Below, in pieces: positions 21,057 to 60,766 of a stretch of 64,000 nucleotides of DNA. The stretch lies in assembly GCA_041658285.1 (NCBI GenBank), contig JBBAAP010000002.1, positions 119,029 to 183,028 of the forward strand, in the 5' to 3' direction. Within the stretch, counting starts at the first letter, position 1. The number at the start of each line of letters is the position of its first letter. Made by a program: the position numbers and the translations under genes. The notes beneath the pieces were generated by a model. It did no database searches. It was not told the origin of the DNA and was given only the letters and a program-made list of their open reading frames with translations. The stretch comes from Candidatus Brocadiia bacterium. Its GTDB lineage: Bacteria > Planctomycetota > MHYJ01 > JACQXL01.

Positions 21057-21315
21057 CTTATGCCGGTGGCATAGTATATTTGTGCCACGTACATAATAGC
21101 CTTGTGCCGGTGGCATAGTATACTTGTGCTACGTACATAATAGTCTTGTGCCGGTGGCATAGTATACTTGTGCTACGTACATAATAGTCTTGTGCCGGTG
21201 GCATAGTATACTTGTGCTACGTACATAATAGTCTTGTGCCGGTGGCATAATATACTTGTGCTACGTACATAATTGGCTTATGCCGGTGGCATAGCAGACT
21301 TGTGCCGGTGGCATA
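21057..21315. repeat. Tandem array: five 44-bp units (each a 22+22 A/B dimer) plus two extra A subunits
   Basis: Units start at 21057, 21101, 21145, 21189 and 21233, with extra A subunits at 21277 and 21299. A=cttgtgccggtggcatagtata, B=cttgtgctacgtacataatagt. Confidence 0.95.
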
Positions 21316-21487
21316 AACGGTTTAAACCTATAAGGAGAGAGTTGGTTTTTGTATTTTGAAGGCGTGTACACCGAGAGCAAAGCCTCCCGCAGGGGCAATT
21401 TTTGTCACTTTGCCCTCAAAAACCCCTGATTTTAGGCAAAAAGTGACGATTTTTGTCATTTCTGATGTGTGTAGCGCCTGCAGGGTG

Positions 21488-22927: not shown

Positions 22928-23489
22928 TCTCGCTTTCGTTAGAGCCAGTTAGTCCCGATGCCGCCGAAGGCGGTTCGGGGCGATACTGGGTCTTATCCCG
23001 ATTCACATCGGGGTTCATCTTGTTAAAATAGTCAATAACCAATAAACTTATGCCGAACAATACCAATGACATCGGCCATAATTTATAAGAAATAGTGAAG
23101 ACGAAGTATAAAACCAGGAAGACGGTTATGAACGATATCGCCATATAAATATGCACTTTGCCTTTGGCAAAAACGCTGGTCATAAAAAAACTCATCCCGA
23201 CAATACCCAAAAAAACCGGCCAAAGGTATGACAGAACCGTCCATGAAGTATTATTCAGGCAGAGGAAAAATATGCTCAGCAAAATCATGAATGAACCGAG
23301 CCAGATAAGCGCGGCATCTCTTCTTTGGCGGCTAAAGAACAGTAAAACAAAACCGCTTCCGGTTATAAGAATAAGGGCAGGCCAGAATTTGCTTATGCCG
23401 CTCAGCAGTGAATAGTTTTCAAGCACCAGAACCAGTCCGGCAATTATAAATAGTCCGGCTAAAGCAATGATACTTTTCTTGTTTTTCAA
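22908..23489 (-). CDS. Multi-pass membrane protein (LiaF/DUF5668-like) whose C-terminal tail is encoded by a palindromic repeat
   Basis: Repeated WPxxLI helices; TTG start; tail NPDVNRDKTQYRPEPPSAASGLTGSN lies over the repeat at 22938-23016. Confidence 0.7.
   Translation of the reverse strand: MKNKKSIIALAGLFIIAGLVLVLENYSLLSGISKFWPALILITGSGFVLLFFSRQRRDAALIWLGSFMILLSIFFLCLNNTSWTVLSYLWPVFLGIVGMSFFMTSVFAKGKVHIYMAISFITVFLVLYFVFTISYKLWPMSLVLFGISLLVIDYFNKMNPDVNRDKTQYRPEPPSAASGLTGSNESENGKENV
22938..23016 (+). repeat. Two-hairpin dispersed repeat (family A) inside a CDS
   Basis: GTTAGAGCCAGTTA-[gtcccga..ccgccGAAggcgg..tcggggc]-GATACTGGGTCTTAT-cccgattcacatcggg. Confidence 0.85.
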
Positions 23490-44705: not shown

Positions 44706-44718
44706 ATTTAACCTTTTT

Positions 44719-44793
44719 TAGAGCCAGTTAAGCGAACCGACACGAAGTGACGGTACGCTGTTACTGGGTCTTATCCCGACTATTCCGTCGGGA
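44719..44793 (+). repeat. Two-hairpin dispersed repeat (family A) in the tuf-rpmG spacer
   Basis: TAGAGCCAGTTA-[agcgaaccgacacGAAgtgacggtacgct]-GTTACTGGGTCTTAT-cccgactattccgtcggg. Confidence 0.85.
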
Positions 44794-46488: not shown

Positions 46489-46571
46489 TGGGCAGGGAGG
46501 GATTCGAACCCCCGAAGCTAAAAAGCAACAGATTTACAGTCTGTCCCCTTTGGCCGCTTGGGTACCTGCCC
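46489..46571 (-). tRNA. tRNA-Tyr(GTA), no encoded CCA
   Basis: Acceptor GGGCAGG/CCTGCCC, loop CTGTAAA, long variable arm. Confidence 0.95.
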
Positions 46572-46599
46572 CGTTATCCCGCCTTAGCAGTATAACGGG
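46570..46599. mobile_element. Miniature CCCGTTA...TAACGGG element (family B) overlapping the tRNA-Tyr 5' end
   Basis: cccgttatcccgccttagcagtataacggg. Confidence 0.6.
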
Positions 46600-46622
46600 G
46601 CATGCCCAAAACAAGTTCTATA

Positions 46623-46694
46623 AGCTGGGAGCGGGATTTGCACCCGCAACCGCCGGTTTACAAAACCGGAGCTCCGCTGTTGAGCTATCCCAGC
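46623..46694 (-). tRNA. tRNA-Thr(TGT), no encoded CCA
   Basis: Acceptor GCTGGGA/TCCCAGC, loop TTTGTAA, T-loop TGCAAAT. Confidence 0.93.
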
Positions 46695-46726
46695 CCCGTT
46701 ATCCCGCCAGAGGGCGGGATAACGGG
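46695..46726. mobile_element. Miniature family B element abutting the tRNA-Thr(TGT) 5' end
   Basis: cccgttatcccgcc-agag-ggcgggataacggg, a perfect 14-bp IR. Confidence 0.65.
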
Positions 46727-46764
46727 GCCGGCATTCTCAATCTTAGTTATCCTATTCCGCCTTA

Positions 46765-48060: not shown

Positions 48061-48073
48061 ATTCAACTCCTTT

Positions 48074-48300
48074 TAGAAACTGTTAGGGATTTAGCCATGA
48101 AATAGCTAAAGACCGTTACAGTTTCTTATCCCGACTATTCCGTCGGGGTTCTAGAGCCACTTAAACATATTGACACACAGTGGCAATATGCTTTTAGTGG
48201 GTCTTATCCAGTTATGATAGCATATCAGAACTGGGTTCTTGCCAGTTAGGATGGTCCCGATGTGACATCGGGACCAACCGTTACTGAGCCTTATCTAATC
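48074..48300 (+). repeat. Three tandem family A units (78 bp, 87 bp, partial)
   Basis: Units start at 48074, 48152 and 48239, with covarying outer stems AAACTGT/ACAGTTT, CCACT/AGTGG and CAGT/ACTG. Confidence 0.85.
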
Positions 48301-50690: not shown

Positions 50691-50811
50691 CCCCGGCAGT
50701 GACCTACTTTCCCACCGAATAAATCATCAGTAGTATCATTGGCCCCAAGGGCTTAACGGCCGTATTCGAGATGGGAACGGGTGTGGCCCCTTGGGAATTG
50801 GACCACCGGGA
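50691..50811 (-). rRNA. rrf: 5S rRNA
   Basis: CCCGGTGG...ACACCCGTTCCCATCTCGAATAC..GTTAAGC..GGGAAAGTAGGTCACTGCCGGG. Confidence 0.93.
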
Positions 50812-50912
50812 GTTAAAAATAAAACGTACAATACGCTGGCAGCTTTAAGCAGCTATTACTGCCAGTCATAGCCGGCTTTAACAGCCGACTATATGGGCTC
50901 AAGGATAAAAAA

Positions 50913-53946
<3,034 letters not shown>

Positions 53947-53988
53947 TTTTTTATCCTAAAGCCCATTGTTATTGCACTAATTACCAAA

Positions 53989-54345: not shown

Positions 54346-54697
54346 GATTTATAGTAGTTATGAATAAGATTTATGATGGTTACGGACAGAATTCATAGTG
54401 ATTATGAATAAGATTTATACTAGTTATGGGCATGATTTATGATGCTTATGAATAAGATTTATAGTGGTTATGGACAGGATTTATAATGGTTATGAACAGA
54501 ATTTATGATGGTTATGAATAAAACTTATAGTAGTTACGAACAGGATTTATACTGGTTATAAATAAAACTTATAGTGGTTATGAACAGGATTAATAATGGT
54601 TATGAATAAGATTTATAGTGGTTATGAACAGGATTTATAATGGTTACGAATAAGACTTATAATGGTTATTAACAAGATTTATAGTGGTTATGGATAA
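54346..54697. repeat. Tandem array of sixteen degenerate 22-bp units
   Basis: Consensus gatttatagtggttatgaa(c/t)a(g/a); units every 22 bp from 54346 to 54676 with no indels. Confidence 0.95.
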
Positions 54698-54916
54698 GTA
54701 TCCAGGTGGTATAGGGGTAGGGTACCCCCACCCCCTTGAGCCAAATATGCATTATATTAGGATTTAGGCGCGAAAAAAAACTTATTTGCCGAAAACAGCA
54801 CATGGGAAAGGGCTAAATTACTGCGTTATTATGCCAGAGACAGCATGCCAAAGGCAGACAAGAATTCCGTTTCGAGAGAACAAAATCCAGTGGTCTATCC
54901 CGCCTACCACCCCTAC

Positions 54917-55603: not shown

Positions 55604-55701
55604 CTCTGCCAATAACTCGTTATACTCGAACTGCCCTAATCCCACTCCGCTACGCTTCGGGGATAACGTGGCAGTAACTCGCTTCGCTCGAACTGCCACT
55701 A
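55604..55701 (-). repeat. Two family A units; the first TAG is the livF stop codon
   Basis: TAGTGGCAGTT-cgagcGAAgcga-GTTACTGCCACGTTAT-cccc..ggga-TTAGGGCAGTT-cgagtataacga-GTTATTGGCA. Confidence 0.8.
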
Positions 55702-56403
55702 ACCCCCCAGGTACGCTTCTATAACCTTAGGATTATGCAACAACGCCTGGGCTTTGTCAGTCAGGGTTATCCGGCCGGTTTCCATAACATATCCGCGATG
55801 GGCCACCTGCAACGCCATCCGGGCGTTCTGCTCGACCAGCAATATAGTCGTGCCGGACTTGTTTAATTCTTTGATTATGTCGAATATCCGGGTGACGATG
55901 ATGGGCGCCAGGCCGAGCGACGGCTCGTCCAGCAACAACAGCTTGGGCCGGGCCATCAGCGCCCGGGCGATGGCCAGCATCTGCTGTTCACCGCCGGAAA
56001 GAGTACCGCCCAACTGGCCGGACCGCTCTTTCAATATCGGGAACAGCCCGAAAACCCGCTCCAGGTCCGGCTTGATGGCCTCGGTATCGGTCCGGACGAA
56101 TGCGCCCATCTGCAGGTTTTCCAGCACGGTCAGGCGCGGGAAGATGCGCCGGCCTTCGGGTATCTGGGCGATACCTTTGGCCACTATCTGGTGCGCCGGC
56201 AGATGGTCTATCGGCTGACCCTCGAAGGTTATCGATCCACGACTGAGCTGGTTGATGCCGGATATAGCCATCAGGGTGGTGGTCTTGCCGGCCCCGTTGG
56301 CGCCGATGATGGTGACAATTTCGCCGGCATTGACCTCGAAGGAGATTCCCTTCAAAACCTCTATCGGCCCGTACCCGCTATGTATGTCAGTCAGTTTGAG
56401 CAT
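55699..56403 (-). CDS. livF: Branched-chain amino acid ABC transporter ATPase
   Basis: GANGAGKTT, PEGRRIF, LSGGEQQML, LLDEPS, EAYLG. Confidence 0.95.
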   Translation of the reverse strand: MLKLTDIHSGYGPIEVLKGISFEVNAGEIVTIIGANGAGKTTTLMAISGINQLSRGSITFEGQPIDHLPAHQIVAKGIAQIPEGRRIFPRLTVLENLQMGAFVRTDTEAIKPDLERVFGLFPILKERSGQLGGTLSGGEQQMLAIARALMARPKLLLLDEPSLGLAPIIVTRIFDIIKELNKSGTTILLVEQNARMALQVAHRGYVMETGRITLTDKAQALLHNPKVIEAYLGG

Positions 56404-56413
56404 AATCAATACA

Positions 56414-56481
56414 ACCACGAAAACACGAAATAACTAAATCACTAAATATTTCGCATCTTCTTACTTTCGCGCTTTCGTGGT
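56414..56481. repeat. Family C inverted repeat in the livG-livF spacer
   Basis: accacgaaaacacgaaa...tttcgcgctttcgtggt. Confidence 0.65.
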
Positions 56482-56485
56482 AAAA

Positions 56486-57391
56486 TTAGTGGTTGTTATC
56501 CTTTCCTAAATAGGCCTCTATTACCTTGGGGTCGCACTGGACGTCTTTGCAGGTGCCTTCGGCTATCTTTACGCCGTGGTCAAGCACGCAGACCCGGTCG
56601 GAGATACCCATAACCACCTTCATATGATGCTCTATCAGGAGCACGGTGATGCCGCTGTCGCGTATCTTGCGTATCAGTGCCATCAGCTCGTTGGTCTCGG
56701 TCGGGTTCATCCCGGCGCCAGGCTCATCCAGGCACAACAGTTGCGGACGGGTGGCCATGGCCCGTGCTATTTCCAGCCGGCGCTGGTCGCCGTAAGCCAG
56801 GTTGCGCGCCCAGACGTTGGCCTTGTTCACCCCGTTAGAGATACAACTCGTTCTATTTGATATGTTTCCTTTAGTTTTATCATCTGCTAAAGTAGAGGTC
56901 GGTGTTGCCGATTTGCGGTCGTCTCTCTGGAACGACCTATCTCTAACGGGGTCCACCAACCCGACGAACCGGAGCAGTTCCAGCGCCTGTTCGGTGATGC
57001 TCTTTTCCTCGCGGACCATTCCCGGATGCCTAACTAAGGCCGAAAATACCCCGCAGCCGGTCCGGCAATGCATGCCGACCATAACGTTTTCCAGCGCGGT
57101 CATCTCGGCGAACAGCCGGATGTTCTGGAACGTCCGGCAAACGCCCAGCCGGGTTATCTGGTATGCCCTCAGCCCGGTGATATCACGGTCATTAAATACT
57201 ATCTGCCCGGCCGTGGGCGCGTAAAGCCCGGTAAGGCAGTTAAAGAGCGTGGTCTTGCCGGCGCCGTTCGGTCCGATGATGCTCAGGATTTCGCCCTTGC
57301 GCAGGTCAAAACTCATGTCCTGCAAAGCGGCCAGCCCGCCAAAGGACTTCGAGACTGATTTGGCTTCGAGCAATATATTATTATTCATCAT
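56486..57391 (-). CDS. livG: Branched-chain amino acid ABC transporter ATPase with a 42-aa in-frame insertion
   Basis: GPNGAGKTT, RTFQNIRLF, LAYGDQRRLEIARA, LDEPGAG, DPKVIEAYLG; insert between GLV and NKANVW. Confidence 0.93.
   Translation of the reverse strand: MMNNNILLEAKSVSKSFGGLAALQDMSFDLRKGEILSIIGPNGAGKTTLFNCLTGLYAPTAGQIVFNDRDITGLRAYQITRLGVCRTFQNIRLFAEMTALENVMVGMHCRTGCGVFSALVRHPGMVREEKSITEQALELLRFVGLVDPVRDRSFQRDDRKSATPTSTLADDKTKGNISNRTSCISNGVNKANVWARNLAYGDQRRLEIARAMATRPQLLCLDEPGAGMNPTETNELMALIRKIRDSGITVLLIEHHMKVVMGISDRVCVLDHGVKIAEGTCKDVQCDPKVIEAYLGKDNNH
56831..56950. mobile_element. 120-bp MITE-like element (family B) inserted in frame in livG
   Basis: 13-bp perfect terminal inverted repeat (TIR) cccgttagagata/tatctctaacggg (15 bp with flanks); flanking 6-mers gtggac/gtgaac on the minus strand; net +126 nt. 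Confidence 0.85.
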
Positions 57392-57393
57392 AT

Positions 57394-58608
57394 CTAATCC
57401 GCCGTTTCAGCGGTCAGTTCCACCTGCCGGCGCTTACTGCTGATTAAGCCCTGTGGCCTGAATAGCATCATCAGCACCATAGTGGCGCCGTATATCAACA
57501 GCCGGTAGTCCTGGAACGCCGGCATCTGGTCACGGATAAACCAGGGCAGGATGAACAGGATTACCGCTCCTAAAATTACGCCCAGGGTGTTTCCCATTCC
57601 ACCCAGGATGACCATGGCCAAAATCAGTGCCGACTGTTCGAACCGGAACGCTTCCGGGGTGATGTAGTTCATCTTGGCCGCGTAGAGTACTCCGGCAAAC
57701 CCGGCCCAGACGGCGCTGATGACGAAAGCCAGGATTTTTAACTGAGTGGTGTTGATGCCCATACTGGTGGCGGCCATCTCGTCTTCGCGCAGGGCTATCC
57801 AGGCCCGGCCTATGCGAGAATTATTGAGACGCCCTATTATGACCACGGTCAGGATGACCATAATAAAGGTCAGGTAATAGTAATGGAGCGGCTGTTTCAG
57901 GACCCAGCCGAATATTTCCGGATGGTTGATTTTGCCGCTGAGCAGTTCGTTGGGCAGGCCTTTTTCGCCTCCGGTCAGGTTGGGCAGGTTCTTGAGCAGG
58001 TAGCGGACCAGCTCACCGAAGCCGAGCGTGACGATGGCCAGGTAATCACCGCGCAGGCGCAGGCAGGGTAATCCGACAATCAGCCCGCACAGCCCGGTCA
58101 CCACCGCAGCCAGGACCAGCCCCAGCCAGAACGGGCAATTGAGCATGATGGAGGCCAGCGCGAAGGTATAAGCGCCGATGGCCCAGAACCCGGCATAGCC
58201 CAGCACCAGCAGTCCGGCCGAGCCGACCACGATATTCAGACCCAGGGCCAATATTATGTAAATGCCGGTGTCAATGGCCAGGTTGAGGTGCTTGCCCGGG
58301 AGCACCCAGGGAATCACGGACAGGACGACCAGCAGTGCCACTACTTCCAATTTTACGGCGGCCGGTTTGGCCATCTTCTCGGTGGTATAGCGGAAAGGTT
58401 CGGCCAGGAGCGAGCCCAGCTTGGCAAGACCTTTCCACCGGCTAAAACCCAACCAGGCCAAACCGCCGACCAGAACCAAGGCGCTGATAACTACCGGACC
58501 GATGCGCCATACGACGCCGTCATCGACCATCTTTATCCCGACGATGGGCAGGGTTATCAGCCCCATCCACAATGCCATCAAGAATACTTTTTTGAAAGTC
58601 AGTTTCAT
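57394..58608 (-). CDS. livM: Branched-chain amino acid ABC transporter permease
   Basis: LGLNIVVG.AGLL.LGY, LRLRGDYLAIVTLGFGE, GRAWIALREDE. Confidence 0.95.
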   Translation of the reverse strand: MKLTFKKVFLMALWMGLITLPIVGIKMVDDGVVWRIGPVVISALVLVGGLAWLGFSRWKGLAKLGSLLAEPFRYTTEKMAKPAAVKLEVVALLVVLSVIPWVLPGKHLNLAIDTGIYIILALGLNIVVGSAGLLVLGYAGFWAIGAYTFALASIMLNCPFWLGLVLAAVVTGLCGLIVGLPCLRLRGDYLAIVTLGFGELVRYLLKNLPNLTGGEKGLPNELLSGKINHPEIFGWVLKQPLHYYYLTFIMVILTVVIIGRLNNSRIGRAWIALREDEMAATSMGINTTQLKILAFVISAVWAGFAGVLYAAKMNYITPEAFRFEQSALILAMVILGGMGNTLGVILGAVILFILPWFIRDQMPAFQDYRLLIYGATMVLMMLFRPQGLISSKRRQVELTAETAD

Positions 58609-58609
58609 A

Positions 58610-59521
58610 CTATGCTTTGTCGGCCAGCCGTTCGCCCAACAGTCCTCTGGGCCGGATAATCAATACCAGCATCAGGATAACGAAGGCGTAGACCTCTTTG
58701 TAATCAGGCGAGATATAAGCCACGCCCAAGGTTTCGACTATGCCAAGCAGGAACCCGCCCAGCATGGCACCGGGAATGTTGCCAATGCCGCCCAGGACGG
58801 CCGCGGTAAAGGCCTTAATACCGGTCATATAACCGACATCAAAACGGGTGGTGGAAATATACATAGAGACCATCACGCCGCCGGCCGCGGCCAATGCCGA
58901 GCCGATGATGAACGTCAGGGCGATGATCCTGTTTATGTCAATGCCGACCAGTGCGGCCATCTTCTTGTCCTGAGCCGTGGCCCGCATGGCCCGGCCGACC
59001 TTGGTCCGGCTGATGAACAGGTGCAAGCCGAGCATTATCAGTATGCACGAAACGATGATGACTATTTCCAGAAGGGATATCCGGGCCGAGCCGACCAGGT
59101 AAGGGTGGCTGGTGAGCGGTTCCTTGAAGAATGCCGGGAAGGCCTTATTCTCCTTGCCCTGGGCGACCATAATGTAGTTCTGCAGGAAGGTGGACATGCC
59201 GATGGCGCTGATAAGAGCGGACAGCACCGGCGCGTGGCGCAGGCGGCGGTAAGCCACCTTTTCAATGGTGAAGCCATATCCGGCGGCAAAGGCGACGCTG
59301 ATAATCAGCGCGATGAACAGGCACAGGATTGGCAGGCCGGCAATCGGGGCGAAGGTGGATAGCACAGCCAGCGAAATGATGCCCAGATAAGCGCCAATCA
59401 TATAGATTTCGCCGTGGGCGAAGTTAATCATCCCGAGTATGCCGTAGACCATTGTGTAGCCGAGGGCAATCAGCGCATAGATACCGCCCTGAATCAAGCC
59501 GTTGACTAAATGTTGCAGCAT
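58610..59521 (-). CDS. livH: Branched-chain amino acid ABC transporter permease
   Basis: LIALGYTMVYGILGMINFAHGE, GRAMRA, KAFTAAVLGGIG; start re-assigned to MLQHLV. Confidence 0.93.
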   Translation of the reverse strand: MLQHLVNGLIQGGIYALIALGYTMVYGILGMINFAHGEIYMIGAYLGIISLAVLSTFAPIAGLPILCLFIALIISVAFAAGYGFTIEKVAYRRLRHAPVLSALISAIGMSTFLQNYIMVAQGKENKAFPAFFKEPLTSHPYLVGSARISLLEIVIIVSCILIMLGLHLFISRTKVGRAMRATAQDKKMAALVGIDINRIIALTFIIGSALAAAGGVMVSMYISTTRFDVGYMTGIKAFTAAVLGGIGNIPGAMLGGFLLGIVETLGVAYISPDYKEVYAFVILMLVLIIRPRGLLGERLADKA

Positions 59522-59550
59522 ACTCTGGACGAACAGGCCTTTCTCCGGGT

Positions 59551-59608
59551 TAGTGGCAGCAGGAACGAAGTGACGTACTGCCACGTTATCCTAAACGAAG
59601 TCCATGGG
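59551..59608 (+). repeat. Family A unit in the livK-livH spacer
   Basis: TAGTGGCAG-[caggaacGAAgtgac]-GTACTGCCACGTTAT-cc... Confidence 0.7.
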
Positions 59609-59630
59609 AAACAGCCCTACTTTGGCTTGT

Positions 59631-59661
59631 CCCGTTTAGAGACAACAATGTCTCTAACGGG
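59631..59661. mobile_element. Short family B element supplying the livK stop codon
   Basis: cccgtttagagac-aacaat-gtctctaacggg. Confidence 0.7.
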
Positions 59662-60766
59662 GTTCGCAGGTAACTAATTTCCCGCCCTTGACTACCCACA
59701 TAATGTAATAGGAACTGGCCAGGTCGCCTTTGGCGTCAAACTGGACCTTGCCAATGGCGCCGTCGTAAGCGGTCTTCCTAATCTGCTCGGATACCTTGGC
59801 GCAGTCCGTGGTGCCGGCGGCCTGGATGGCGGACAGGATGATATTAGCCGCGTCATAAGCATAGATTGAATAAGGGCCGTACGGGCCGTATTTCTCACGA
59901 TATTTATCCAGGAACGACTTGGCTGAGGGGATGATTTCAGGGTCGCGTGAGAATGTCAAGTAAGAACCCTCGGCCGATGCGCCGGCCACCTTGAGGAAAA
60001 CCGGGTCAAACACGCCGTCGCCGCTCATGAAAGCCGCGGTCAAACCGGCTTCGCGCGCCTGGACCATCATCGGACCGGCCTGGTTGTACATCCCGCCGAA
60101 GAACAGCAGCTCCGGATTGGTCTCCTTGACGGCGCTGATGATGGGCTTGAAGTTAAGCTCTTCCTTGGGGAACCCGCCGTAATAAACGACTTCGGCGTTT
60201 GTGCCCAGCGCTTTCTTGAACTCATCGGCCAGCCCCTGGCCGTATTGGGTCTTGTCGTGCAGGATGGCCACCTTCTTGACTTTCAACGTGCCTATCGCGT
60301 AATCAGCCGAGACTTTGCCCTGCTGGTCGTCACGGCCGCAGACCCGGAAAATATTGGCGAAATTACGGTCGGTTACGTAAGGATTGGTCGAGGACGGGGT
60401 AATCATGGGGATATTGGAATCGTGATAAACCACCGAAGCCGGTATGGTGCAGCCGCTGTTGAAATGCCCGACCACGCCGACGACACCTTCGCCGGCCAGT
60501 TCTTTGGCCACCGACTGGGCCTGCTGTTCCTGGGCCATGTCGTCGCGGGAAACGATGACGACTTTCTTGCCCAGGACGCCGCCTTTGGCGTTCCATTCCT
60601 CAACGGCCAACGTGGCGCCGTTAAGCACGTCGGTGCCCAACTTGGCCTGGTCACCGGTTAACGGGCCGGCCACGCCCAACTTGATGACATCAGTTTTTGT
60701 ACCGCAACCCAACAATATTATTGATAAACCAAAAGCCCATCCCCAAGTAATTACTTGCCTTTTCAT
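59654..60766 (-). CDS. livK: Branched-chain amino acid ABC transporter substrate-binding lipoprotein
   Basis: LLGC lipobox, GPLTG, VVGHFNSG, FRVCGRDDQQG, DKTQYGQGLA, YAYDAA. Confidence 0.93.
   Translation of the reverse strand: MKRQVITWGWAFGLSIILLGCGTKTDVIKLGVAGPLTGDQAKLGTDVLNGATLAVEEWNAKGGVLGKKVVIVSRDDMAQEQQAQSVAKELAGEGVVGVVGHFNSGCTIPASVVYHDSNIPMITPSSTNPYVTDRNFANIFRVCGRDDQQGKVSADYAIGTLKVKKVAILHDKTQYGQGLADEFKKALGTNAEVVYYGGFPKEELNFKPIISAVKETNPELLFFGGMYNQAGPMMVQAREAGLTAAFMSGDGVFDPVFLKVAGASAEGSYLTFSRDPEIIPSAKSFLDKYREKYGPYGPYSIYAYDAANIILSAIQAAGTTDCAKVSEQIRKTAYDGAIGKVQFDAKGDLASSYYIMWVVKGGKLVTCEPR

Follow-up and report, generated by a model that had tools for sequence, protein, structure and literature searches.

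The livG gene in the 64,000-nt stretch of Candidatus Brocadiia DNA analysed here (the window) very probably contains a non-autonomous DNA transposon, a transposable element of the miniature inverted-repeat type (MITE) at positions 56830-56951, that is translated with the host protein and was mobilised in trans by a DDE-type transposase. The gene (56486-57391, minus strand) encodes a LivG-type ATP-binding cassette ATPase of 301 residues, about residues 147-188 of which form a 42-residue insert, and it sits in an intact livK-H-M-G-F operon (55699-60766). Its open reading frame (ORF) matched the Pfam domains ABC_tran and BCA_ABC_TP_C, and the best match in the Protein Data Bank was the MJ1267 LivG (1G6H). 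The nine closest LivG homologues comprise 255-282 residues and are 71-84% identical over aligned columns; the window protein alone has 301. The 42-residue block was exclusive to the window LivG, with a gap-free alignment of the homologues on either side; precisely this block is missing from the closest orthologues, which are 76-84% identical. At the empty site orthologues read FVGLVD-(E/K)AN-xWARN and the window protein reads FVGLVD[PVRDR...ISNGV]NKANVWARN, bearing out the proposal of a first-pass annotation of this DNA that a MITE-like element had inserted in frame in livG, adding 126 nt and 42 residues before the signature motif. The same annotation had anticipated further copies and had considered that orthologues might share the insert without inverted repeats; the orthologues lack the insert, and copies are numerous (more than 240).

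The element is a complete MITE of 122 bp, absent from the orthologues, which lies on the livG strand (minus) with its hairpin-bearing end first (orientation A) and is bounded by perfect 14-bp terminal inverted repeats (TIRs). The 'left' (hairpin-end) TIR at 56938-56951 reads CCCCGTTAGAGATA on the minus strand and TATCTCTAACGGGG on the plus strand, and the 'right' TIR at 56830-56843 has the plus-strand reading CCCCGTTAGAGATA and by itself scores 18.8 bits. A perfect inverted repeat had been recognised at the outset; the dimensions then given, 120 bp with a 13-bp TIR, are revised to 122 bp and 14 bp. Within the window the exact 14-mer CCCCGTTAGAGATA was found in just two places, both ends of the element, with a one-mismatch copy at 59649-59662. 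A subterminal hairpin, GGTCGTT-CCAGAGA-GACGACC (56917-56937, minus strand), begins 2 nt inside the repeat and is present in the predicted fold at the canonical place for the family described below, the covariance model of which gave 35.1 bits (E = 2.7e-8) for the minus-strand interval 56913-56951. The predicted RNA fold of the element is highly stable (-43.4 kcal/mol, z = -5.0), with none of 200 shuffled sequences as stable. No terminator or promoter was predicted in the window copy, and an exact 28-mer taken from it had no match in the metagenomes. Searches of Rfam with the window, together with a permissive search of the element, gave no hit at the gathering score and, at E <= 10, a single weak and unrelated hit outside the element.

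On the livG coding strand the insertion reads GTG GAC / CCC GTT AGA ... TCT AAC GGG / GTG AAC AAG, and the closest orthologue (DNA in locus L122) has GTT GAC GAA at its empty site. The flanks of the element on the plus strand, TTCA and TCCA, constitute a 4-bp duplication with one mismatch. Copy 2 (56952-56955; TCCA on the plus strand, TGGA in livG sense) falls within codons Val146-Asp147 and keeps the ancestral sequence; orthologues have V-D at this point, and Asp147 is conserved at 90% or more. Copy 1 (56826-56829; TTCA on the plus strand, TGAA in livG sense) differs from it by a G-to-A change. The upstream TGGA thereby preserves the conserved Asp147, and the downstream TGAA makes the duplicated Asp codon Asn. 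The 6-bp duplication (gtggac/gtgaac) first annotated here is not upheld, as analysis of 125 and then of 107 copies of the family gave a length of 4 bp, and the two extra positions come from a G in the flank and from the outermost TIR base pair. In total 126 nt were added (122 + 4), a multiple of three that is stop-free in the livG frame. Without these 126 nt the livG sequence would give the junction ...GTGGACAAG..., and translation of the insert would yield peptides such as SFQRDDR and SATPTSTLADDK. The element entered at TGGA in codons Val146-Asp147, duplicating those 4 bp.

The catalytic motifs, described as intact in the first-pass annotation, are all retained as invariant columns, namely Walker A (G40-T47), the Q-loop (Q89), the signature (Y200-R205), Walker B (D222-E223) and the H-loop (H255). 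An AlphaFold2 model of LivG based on 63 homologues had a mean predicted local distance difference test score (pLDDT) of 86 and a predicted template modelling score of 0.82; most of the nucleotide-binding fold had a pLDDT of at least 90, and about residues 147-190 were modelled as coil with an average of 46-59. In the alignment to 1G6H the insert is located between chain residues 143 and 152, past the last helix of the helical subdomain and directly before the signature motif. The insert is accordingly predicted to be a disordered surface loop beside an intact ATPase fold, in line with the surface loop that the earlier annotation had thought modelling might reveal. Because ATPase fold and motifs are untouched, the transporter with the altered LivG is probably still functional. 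The livG copy would simply be translated, giving the 42-residue disordered loop, and would be of no benefit to livG but merely tolerated, frame-breaking copies being purged by selection. Length change at this position appears permissible, since another LivG (P0010, locus L125 3001-3849, on another contig of the same study) bears an unrelated 20-residue insert, CQPTNQSDSRACPASEGTEW, in exactly the same loop. The P0010 insert holds an 8-bp inverted repeat of its own (GCCCAGCA/TGCTGGGC).

The family to which the element belongs was assembled from two samples. For the first, one genome per species was searched with CCGTTAGAGA-N83-113-TCTCTAACGG, yielding at least 120 loci; both repeats were fixed in this query, so that TIR conservation in the first sample is built into the design, and about 30 chance matches are expected over the whole genome collection by our own estimate. 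For the second, metagenome contigs were scanned with the left repeat and the GGTCG...CGACC hairpin alone, which yielded at least 119 further loci and brought the total to more than 240 copies. The loci are 8-kb stretches around the copies and comprise 1.5 Mb of flanking DNA. In the second sample a right repeat (<=2 mismatches) was found within 50-260 nt in 113 of 120 modules, though it was not part of the query; the remaining seven modules are at contig ends or are decayed copies, one of them beside a XerD-like recombinase on the other strand.

Family anatomy was derived from 125 copies of the first sample. The termini are YCCCGTTAGAGA, with the consensus Y-CCCGTTAGAGA-Y-A and a TIR of 12-14 bp that extends one base pair beyond CCCG, as T...A or C...G. 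A 4-bp duplication was exact in 80 of the 125 copies, compared with 10.5 expected from randomly paired flanks, with no comparable signal at any other length or offset, and it was exact in 60 of 107 copies of the second sample. Its sequence differs among copies (TCAA, TAAA, TTCA, TGAA, CTCA and others) and approximates TNNA, with T first in 78% and A last in 84%; TTAA is rare. The hairpin is present in about three-quarters of copies, where it starts two bases inside one end as GG(N)5-7 / loop / (N)5-7CC and is followed by GT. Furthermore, of 248 ends, 110 had a palindrome or hairpin of 15-21 nt that starts 2 nt inside the repeat, versus 38 in shuffled sequences. The covariance model, built from the repeat and the hairpin, detected 69 copies in 100 loci (E < 1e-4), with 98.9% of cells paired compared with 29-59% in slid controls. 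Six of the seven pairs change on both sides, with 161 double-sided cells across the 69 copies, and loops range from 3 to 18 nt while pairing is retained. The hairpin alignment was fitted to the model; the same pairing is evident in stems read directly from the copies.

The element interior has 33% G+C and no conserved k-mer or motif, and stops in all six frames are found in most copies. Family members range from 54 to about 135 bp, and sizes in the second sample peak at about 60-69 and 110-129 nt, with the hairpin kept even in the shortest copies. Mini-elements of 26-32 bp consist of the two repeats alone and can have perfect 4-bp duplications (TCAG, L107 1514-1537; CGAG, L002 5796-5820). A sub-type with G+C-rich nested hairpins has the same termini. 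Some metagenome-assembled genomes (MAGs) carry 2-4 copies on different contigs, and some of these copies are nearly identical, those in L055 and L066 having a single difference in 106 positions. Patescibacteria loci (L012 1888, L020 2170, L044 226/2424/2538, L098 2630, L112 5275, L117 6129 and L039 249-282) repeatedly show a variant terminus, CCCGTTAGAAG / CTTCTAACGGG, next to the same hairpin module, which suggests sister families with slightly different ends.

Besides livG, at least 13 further in-frame insertion sites were found in real genes. In the first sample, composed mostly of AT-rich Patescibacteria, 3 of 126 copies were in long ORFs that run through the element (through-ORFs): livG, a Fpg/Nei glycosylase gene of an Uhrbacteria MAG and, in an Omnitrophota MAG, an ORF of 2666 aa. 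For the second sample the fraction was 11 of 95 distinct copies, and the hosts encode a NAD-dependent epimerase, PanE/ApbA, a Fer2-RACo protein, a PALP enzyme, an AAT-family protein, a GH65-C fragment, a spermine-synthase-like protein (with two tandem copies) and several prepilin-type (N_methyl/DUF1559) proteins. Where tested by Pfam, the inserts proved to lie in real genes, and domains flanking the insert at either end were clearest for PanE, RACo, Fpg and the epimerase. Every through-ORF copy checked for length (11 of the metagenome set, the Fpg and giant-ORF copies of the genome set, and the livG copy) adds a multiple of three bases, which would reflect the removal of frame-breaking copies by selection. 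Of all 95 copies in the second sample, 52 add a multiple of three (p = 3e-5, a figure inflated by kinship among copies) and 47 have an open frame. The TIR itself is open in two frames (PVRD.../...ISNG and PLE.../...SLTG) and encounters TAG in the third.

The nearest relative found for the window copy, at locus L189 from Hainich groundwater, has the same length, is 83% identical and lies in frame in a Fer2-RACo gene, indicating that the sub-lineage of the window copy has itself moved between genes. The two encode nearly the same peptide (VDPVRDRSPQRDDRKSTTPTSRLVDDKTKGDISDRANGISNGV in L189, VDPVRDRSFQRDDRKSATPTSTLADDKTKGNISNRTSCISNGV in LivG), and the LivG insert is inferred to be translated. 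A protein search with the 42-residue insert gave no candidate and is insensitive, since the related L189 peptide exists.

Genes next to copies have acquired other material from the family. Prepilin-type leaders are hit repeatedly (L145 3666-3734, L161 1968-2036, L198 2576-2641 and L212 141-200, the last with an upstream copy in the same ORF), the copies directly preceding the G/FTLIELLVV cleavage motif; the element itself encodes a look-alike, 'GFTPLEI'. The cleavage site is preserved because the repeat and the TTCA duplication rebuild 'G FT', and the prepilin leader is perhaps a hot spot for targeting, or else a site at which insertion is specially tolerated. An intergenic copy (L027 1329-1445) donates a start codon to a heterodisulfide-reductase-like ORF (1429-1995), which begins MSISNGV within the right repeat, and a glycosyltransferase (L091 640-1635) ends within a repeat, which donates its stop codon.

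A second member of the family occupies the gap between livK and livH as a 32-bp mini-element, CCCGTTTAGAGACA-ACAA-TGTCTCTAACGGGG, at 59631-59662 (18.3 bits). The livK gene (59654-60766, minus strand; ending ...TCEPR*) takes its final two codons and its TAG stop from this mini-element, so the family has touched two genes of the liv operon. In all, about 78 kb of the source genome was examined and contained one full and one mini copy; the roughly 8 kb beyond the window held no family copies. The first-pass annotation had placed the same termini at 46570, 46695 and 59631. The last of these is a family member, but the former two are unsupported: the hairpins there share only the outer 8 nt (CCCCGTTA/TAACGGGG), have no score with the family model, and their sequence is absent from the 1.5 Mb of family loci. 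These hairpins (46569-46602 and 46693-46728) share GCCCCGTTATCCCGCC and lie immediately 5' of the genes for tRNA-Tyr and tRNA-Thr, the first 2-3 nt of which they overlap. The suggestion that the family reshapes RNA genes is likewise not sustained, as no copy lies within any rRNA or tRNA gene of the window, and a description of it as active or recent in this genome finds no support in one full and one mini copy in about 78 kb, a mismatched duplication and the nearest relative found, at 83% identity. Inverted 45-nt hairpin repeats of another kind (GGATAACGTGGCAGT...ACTGCCACTAACCC, 84% complementary) at 55661-55705 and 59547-59591 flank livH-M-G-F, and the livK-livH gap contains two unrelated hairpin repeats, the mini-element and a copy of this 45-nt repeat.

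Most copies of the family are intergenic, with a preference for short gaps inside operons. Between co-directional genes the hairpin end was downstream in 37 of 46 cases in the first sample (37:9; p = 4e-5) and in 13 of 14 in the second (13:1; p = 0.002). Copies in through-ORFs have no such bias (7:4), and the livG copy is in the minority orientation. No U-tract follows the hairpin, promoter-like sites have a weak excess on one strand (21 vs 11), and no terminator or clear promoter behind the orientation bias was found. Transcript-level selection or replication-coupled insertion are possible sources of the bias.

The variable 4-bp duplications and the mobile units composed of repeats only point to a DDE-type enzyme acting in trans, and movement would be cut-and-paste by such a transposase reading the repeats. 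In its CCC termini, its repeat of 13/14 bp, its T..A duplication of 4 bp and its palindrome of some 17 bp placed 2-3 bp inside one end, the end architecture would be nearest the piggyBac/IS1380 superfamily. In the ISfinder family table, IS1380 is the insertion sequence (IS) family with CC ends and a 4-5 bp duplication. The family resembles the superfamily in its CC(C) termini (YCCCG...) and its 4-bp T...A duplication, and possibly in having an asymmetrically used palindrome of some 17 bp that starts 2-3 bp inside the repeat. The piggyBac left end is TTAA followed by CCCTAGAAAGATA-GTC-TGCGTAAAATTGACGCA, with a palindrome at bp 17-33 that is bound by a dimer of the C-terminal domain at one end only (PMC7351741); piggyBac repeats begin with CCC and duplicate TTAA, and IS1380 is taken as the prokaryotic outgroup (PMC10813416). 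The family end can be written as TNNA followed by YCCCGTTAGAGATA-GG-stem-loop-stem-CC, and CCCTAGAAAGATA and the family CCCGTTAGAGATA are identical at 9 of 13 positions without a gap. However, the family palindrome varies in sequence and loop length yet keeps its pairing, unlike a fixed protein-binding site, and the target is T(78%)-N-N-A(84%) where that of piggyBac is TTAA. The resemblance, drawn from sequence comparison, is a lead and not a sign of membership. The ends of ISEcp1 (CCTAGATTCTACGT) begin CCTAGA.

Other short repeats offer parallels in behaviour. Correia/NEMIS of Neisseria, Nezha of cyanobacteria and Chunjie of Geobacter are 100-200-bp MITEs with TIRs, short duplications and long hairpins that insert in operons and are co-transcribed. 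Their termini and duplications are different (TA for Correia), each is restricted to a single genus or phylum, and the parent insertion sequences of Nezha and Chunjie are known; in the literature searched, none of these MITEs is described with the end 'CCCGTTAGAGA'. The family also shares with REP/REPIN sequences the hairpin repeats in operon gaps, the lack of an adjacent transposase, and single (about 30 bp) and doublet (about 120 bp) forms. REPINs are not known to produce a target duplication and have a conserved GTAG beside the hairpin, whereas the present family has 4-bp duplications and non-palindromic terminal repeats. Bacterial MITE families of these kinds have been reviewed (PMC10969869), as have the Rickettsia palindromic elements (RPEs), Coxiella QMITE1, intragenic ERIC and Anabaena MITEs, palindromic repeats of about 100-150 bp that are found in frame in unrelated housekeeping genes and are translated and fold-compatible (PMC10969869). 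An in-frame bacterial MITE insertion is therefore in itself of a known kind. The likeness to RPEs is one of behaviour only and comprises in-frame, presumably translated copies in LivG, Fpg, PanE, RACo, the epimerase, the PALP enzyme and others. The family would be unrelated to RPEs in sequence, and it differs from them in its sharp 12-14-bp TIR, 4-bp duplication and covarying subterminal hairpin, in being mostly intergenic, and in its occurrence across many uncultured phyla, compared with one endosymbiont genus for RPEs.

Several observations weigh against a translated MITE mobilised in trans by a DDE-type transposase. The insertion was seen in one genome only, and a contig in ENA with the same insert is 100% identical outside a chimeric rRNA end and represents the same genome, thus providing no independent support. 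None of the more than 240 copies has a transposase-sized element between its repeats, and no neighbour gene is recurrent, the largest cluster (5 of 120 loci) and all others being ordinary genes. No hit at E <= 10 was obtained when six-frame ORFs of loci L001-L126 and of the window were searched by phmmer with the ISEcp1 transposase. The target is TNNA and not strictly TTAA, a covarying hairpin with loops of 3-18 nt is more in keeping with a folded single strand than with a protein dimer bound to a DNA duplex, and the 50:10 orientation bias is not predicted by simple cut-and-paste. The search for a mover was otherwise also negative. Neither the copies nor their flanking DNA (1.5 Mb) yielded an autonomous IS with the same ends; no autonomous element emerged from repeat pairs spaced by 400-4000 bp (<=2 mismatches) in the loci, solo repeats being degenerate MITEs; and genes between adjacent family copies are host genes. 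No PF13701 or PF13843 transposase was found next to or near copies in the loci searched. The best 120 database relatives of ISEcp1 are all at least 83% identical, and the diverse representatives obtained had no repeat-encoded peptide at their termini. As the first-pass annotation had noted, the window itself encodes no transposase, nor a HUH gene, by Pfam (run on 29 ORFs, with recorded hits for the remainder; four ORFs had no hit).

The hairpin, the orientation bias and the missing transposase are where an element recognised as a single-strand hairpin would have its appeal, in the manner of REP/REPIN-RAYT or as a derivative of IS200/IS605, with a host HUH tyrosine transposase reading the repeat stem, the subterminal hairpin or both on the lagging-strand template. 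Such an element accounts for a hairpin that covaries and keeps a constant distance from the end, and for REP-like hairpin copies of 26-32 bp; the lack of a linked transposase among more than 240 copies parallels REPINs, and the 50:10 bias is expected if insertion is coupled to replication. It appears improbable nonetheless, as HUH elements make no target duplications and variable 4-bp duplications are found at 56-64% of copies compared with about 8% expected. The ends, being true inverted repeats, could be recognised as duplex, hairpin-less mini-elements still have duplications, and through-ORF copies have little orientation bias (7:4). The stable fold (z = -5), the covariation, the orientation relative to transcription and the preference for short intergenic gaps in operons could also be ascribed to a structured RNA, be it a signal for cis-regulation or processing or an insert that is mobile or removes itself at the RNA level, with the in-frame state in livG incidental. 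This is more improbable still: there is no Rfam match, the 33% G+C interior lacks a conserved motif, and target duplications denote movement at the DNA level. Removal from RNA does not require an insert of stop-free length divisible by three, yet 11 of 11 through-ORF copies have both properties. A stretch of 42 residues is, moreover, far too short for an intein.

It is scarcely credible that the 42 residues are an ordinary lineage-specific expansion of a LivG loop by duplication or slippage, or an assembly chimera, with the inverted repeat arising by chance. The P0010 lineage, with its unrelated insert in the same loop, does indicate that length change is tolerated there, and the insertion is present in effectively one assembly. 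Against this stand perfect 14-bp repeats found nowhere else in the window, more than 240 related copies that share ends, duplication and hairpin, an 83%-identical copy in a different gene, and the absence of any match to the both-repeat pattern in 2.9 million viral contigs.

Building on a MITE mobilised in trans, a more elaborate scenario can be put forward, speculatively and with considerable doubt, in which the family is one cross-phylum system ranging from 26-bp repeat-only units to hairpin units of about 130 bp, moved by a rare or domesticated piggyBac/IS1380-like host gene or by a hairpin-reading enzyme, and including a translation-ready sub-lineage. If so, the sub-lineage of Planctomycetota and Omnitrophota (multiple of three including the duplication, open in two of three frames) would routinely seed surface loops and leader peptides, and it might excise seamlessly, seamless junctions being a piggyBac-like prediction.

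Family loci were found in MAGs of many Patescibacteria classes, Omnitrophota, Planctomycetota, Elusimicrobiota, Ratteibacteria and WOR-3, and furthermore of Nitrospirota, Deltaproteobacteria, Ignavibacteria and one Clostridia, a host taxonomy that is MAG-based and may contain binning errors. Rfam 15 assigned no family at the gathering score to 18 family loci, the end sequence 'CCCGTTAGAGA' did not occur in the literature searched, and no literature on MITEs in these phyla was found. The repeat family is apparently undescribed so far. An in-frame MITE is among the few routes by which a protein gains a whole loop in one step; the clear bacterial example so far has been Rickettsia, and here the same process would be at work in free-living uncultured groundwater phyla, in a family spanning the tiny genomes of the candidate phyla radiation to Planctomycetota. 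The family amounts to a natural catalogue of sites that accept insertions in well-known enzymes (LivG, Fpg, PanE, RACo, prepilin leaders), and its ends are a possible bacterial counterpart of those of piggyBac type. Since copies give their neighbours start codons, stop codons and extra residues, annotation pipelines should recognise the family marker.

Further repeats were observed in the window. The 23S and 5S rRNA genes are located at 50691-53944, with no 16S within the 10 kb of the window upstream, so that the 16S rRNA gene is apparently unlinked to them. The 23S match spans 3032 nt relative to a model of 2925 nt, so that insertions in this gene are probable; the arms of a 29-nt inverted repeat (50893-50921 / 53938-53966) stand on either side of it in the manner of a processing stem. 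Tandem repeats of 22/44 bp form two arrays. In one (54346-54698), just upstream of the minus-strand 23S rRNA gene, a 44-bp unit is repeated about 8 times; in the other (21057-21316), an unrelated 44-bp unit has 5.7 copies at 94% identity. A 61-nt hairpin-like repeat, TTTTAGAGCC...GGGTCTTATCC, has three copies near the EF-Tu/tRNA cluster (44716-44776, 48071-48131 and 48149-48209; 61-75% identical), and a fragment of it also occurs at 22981-23001.

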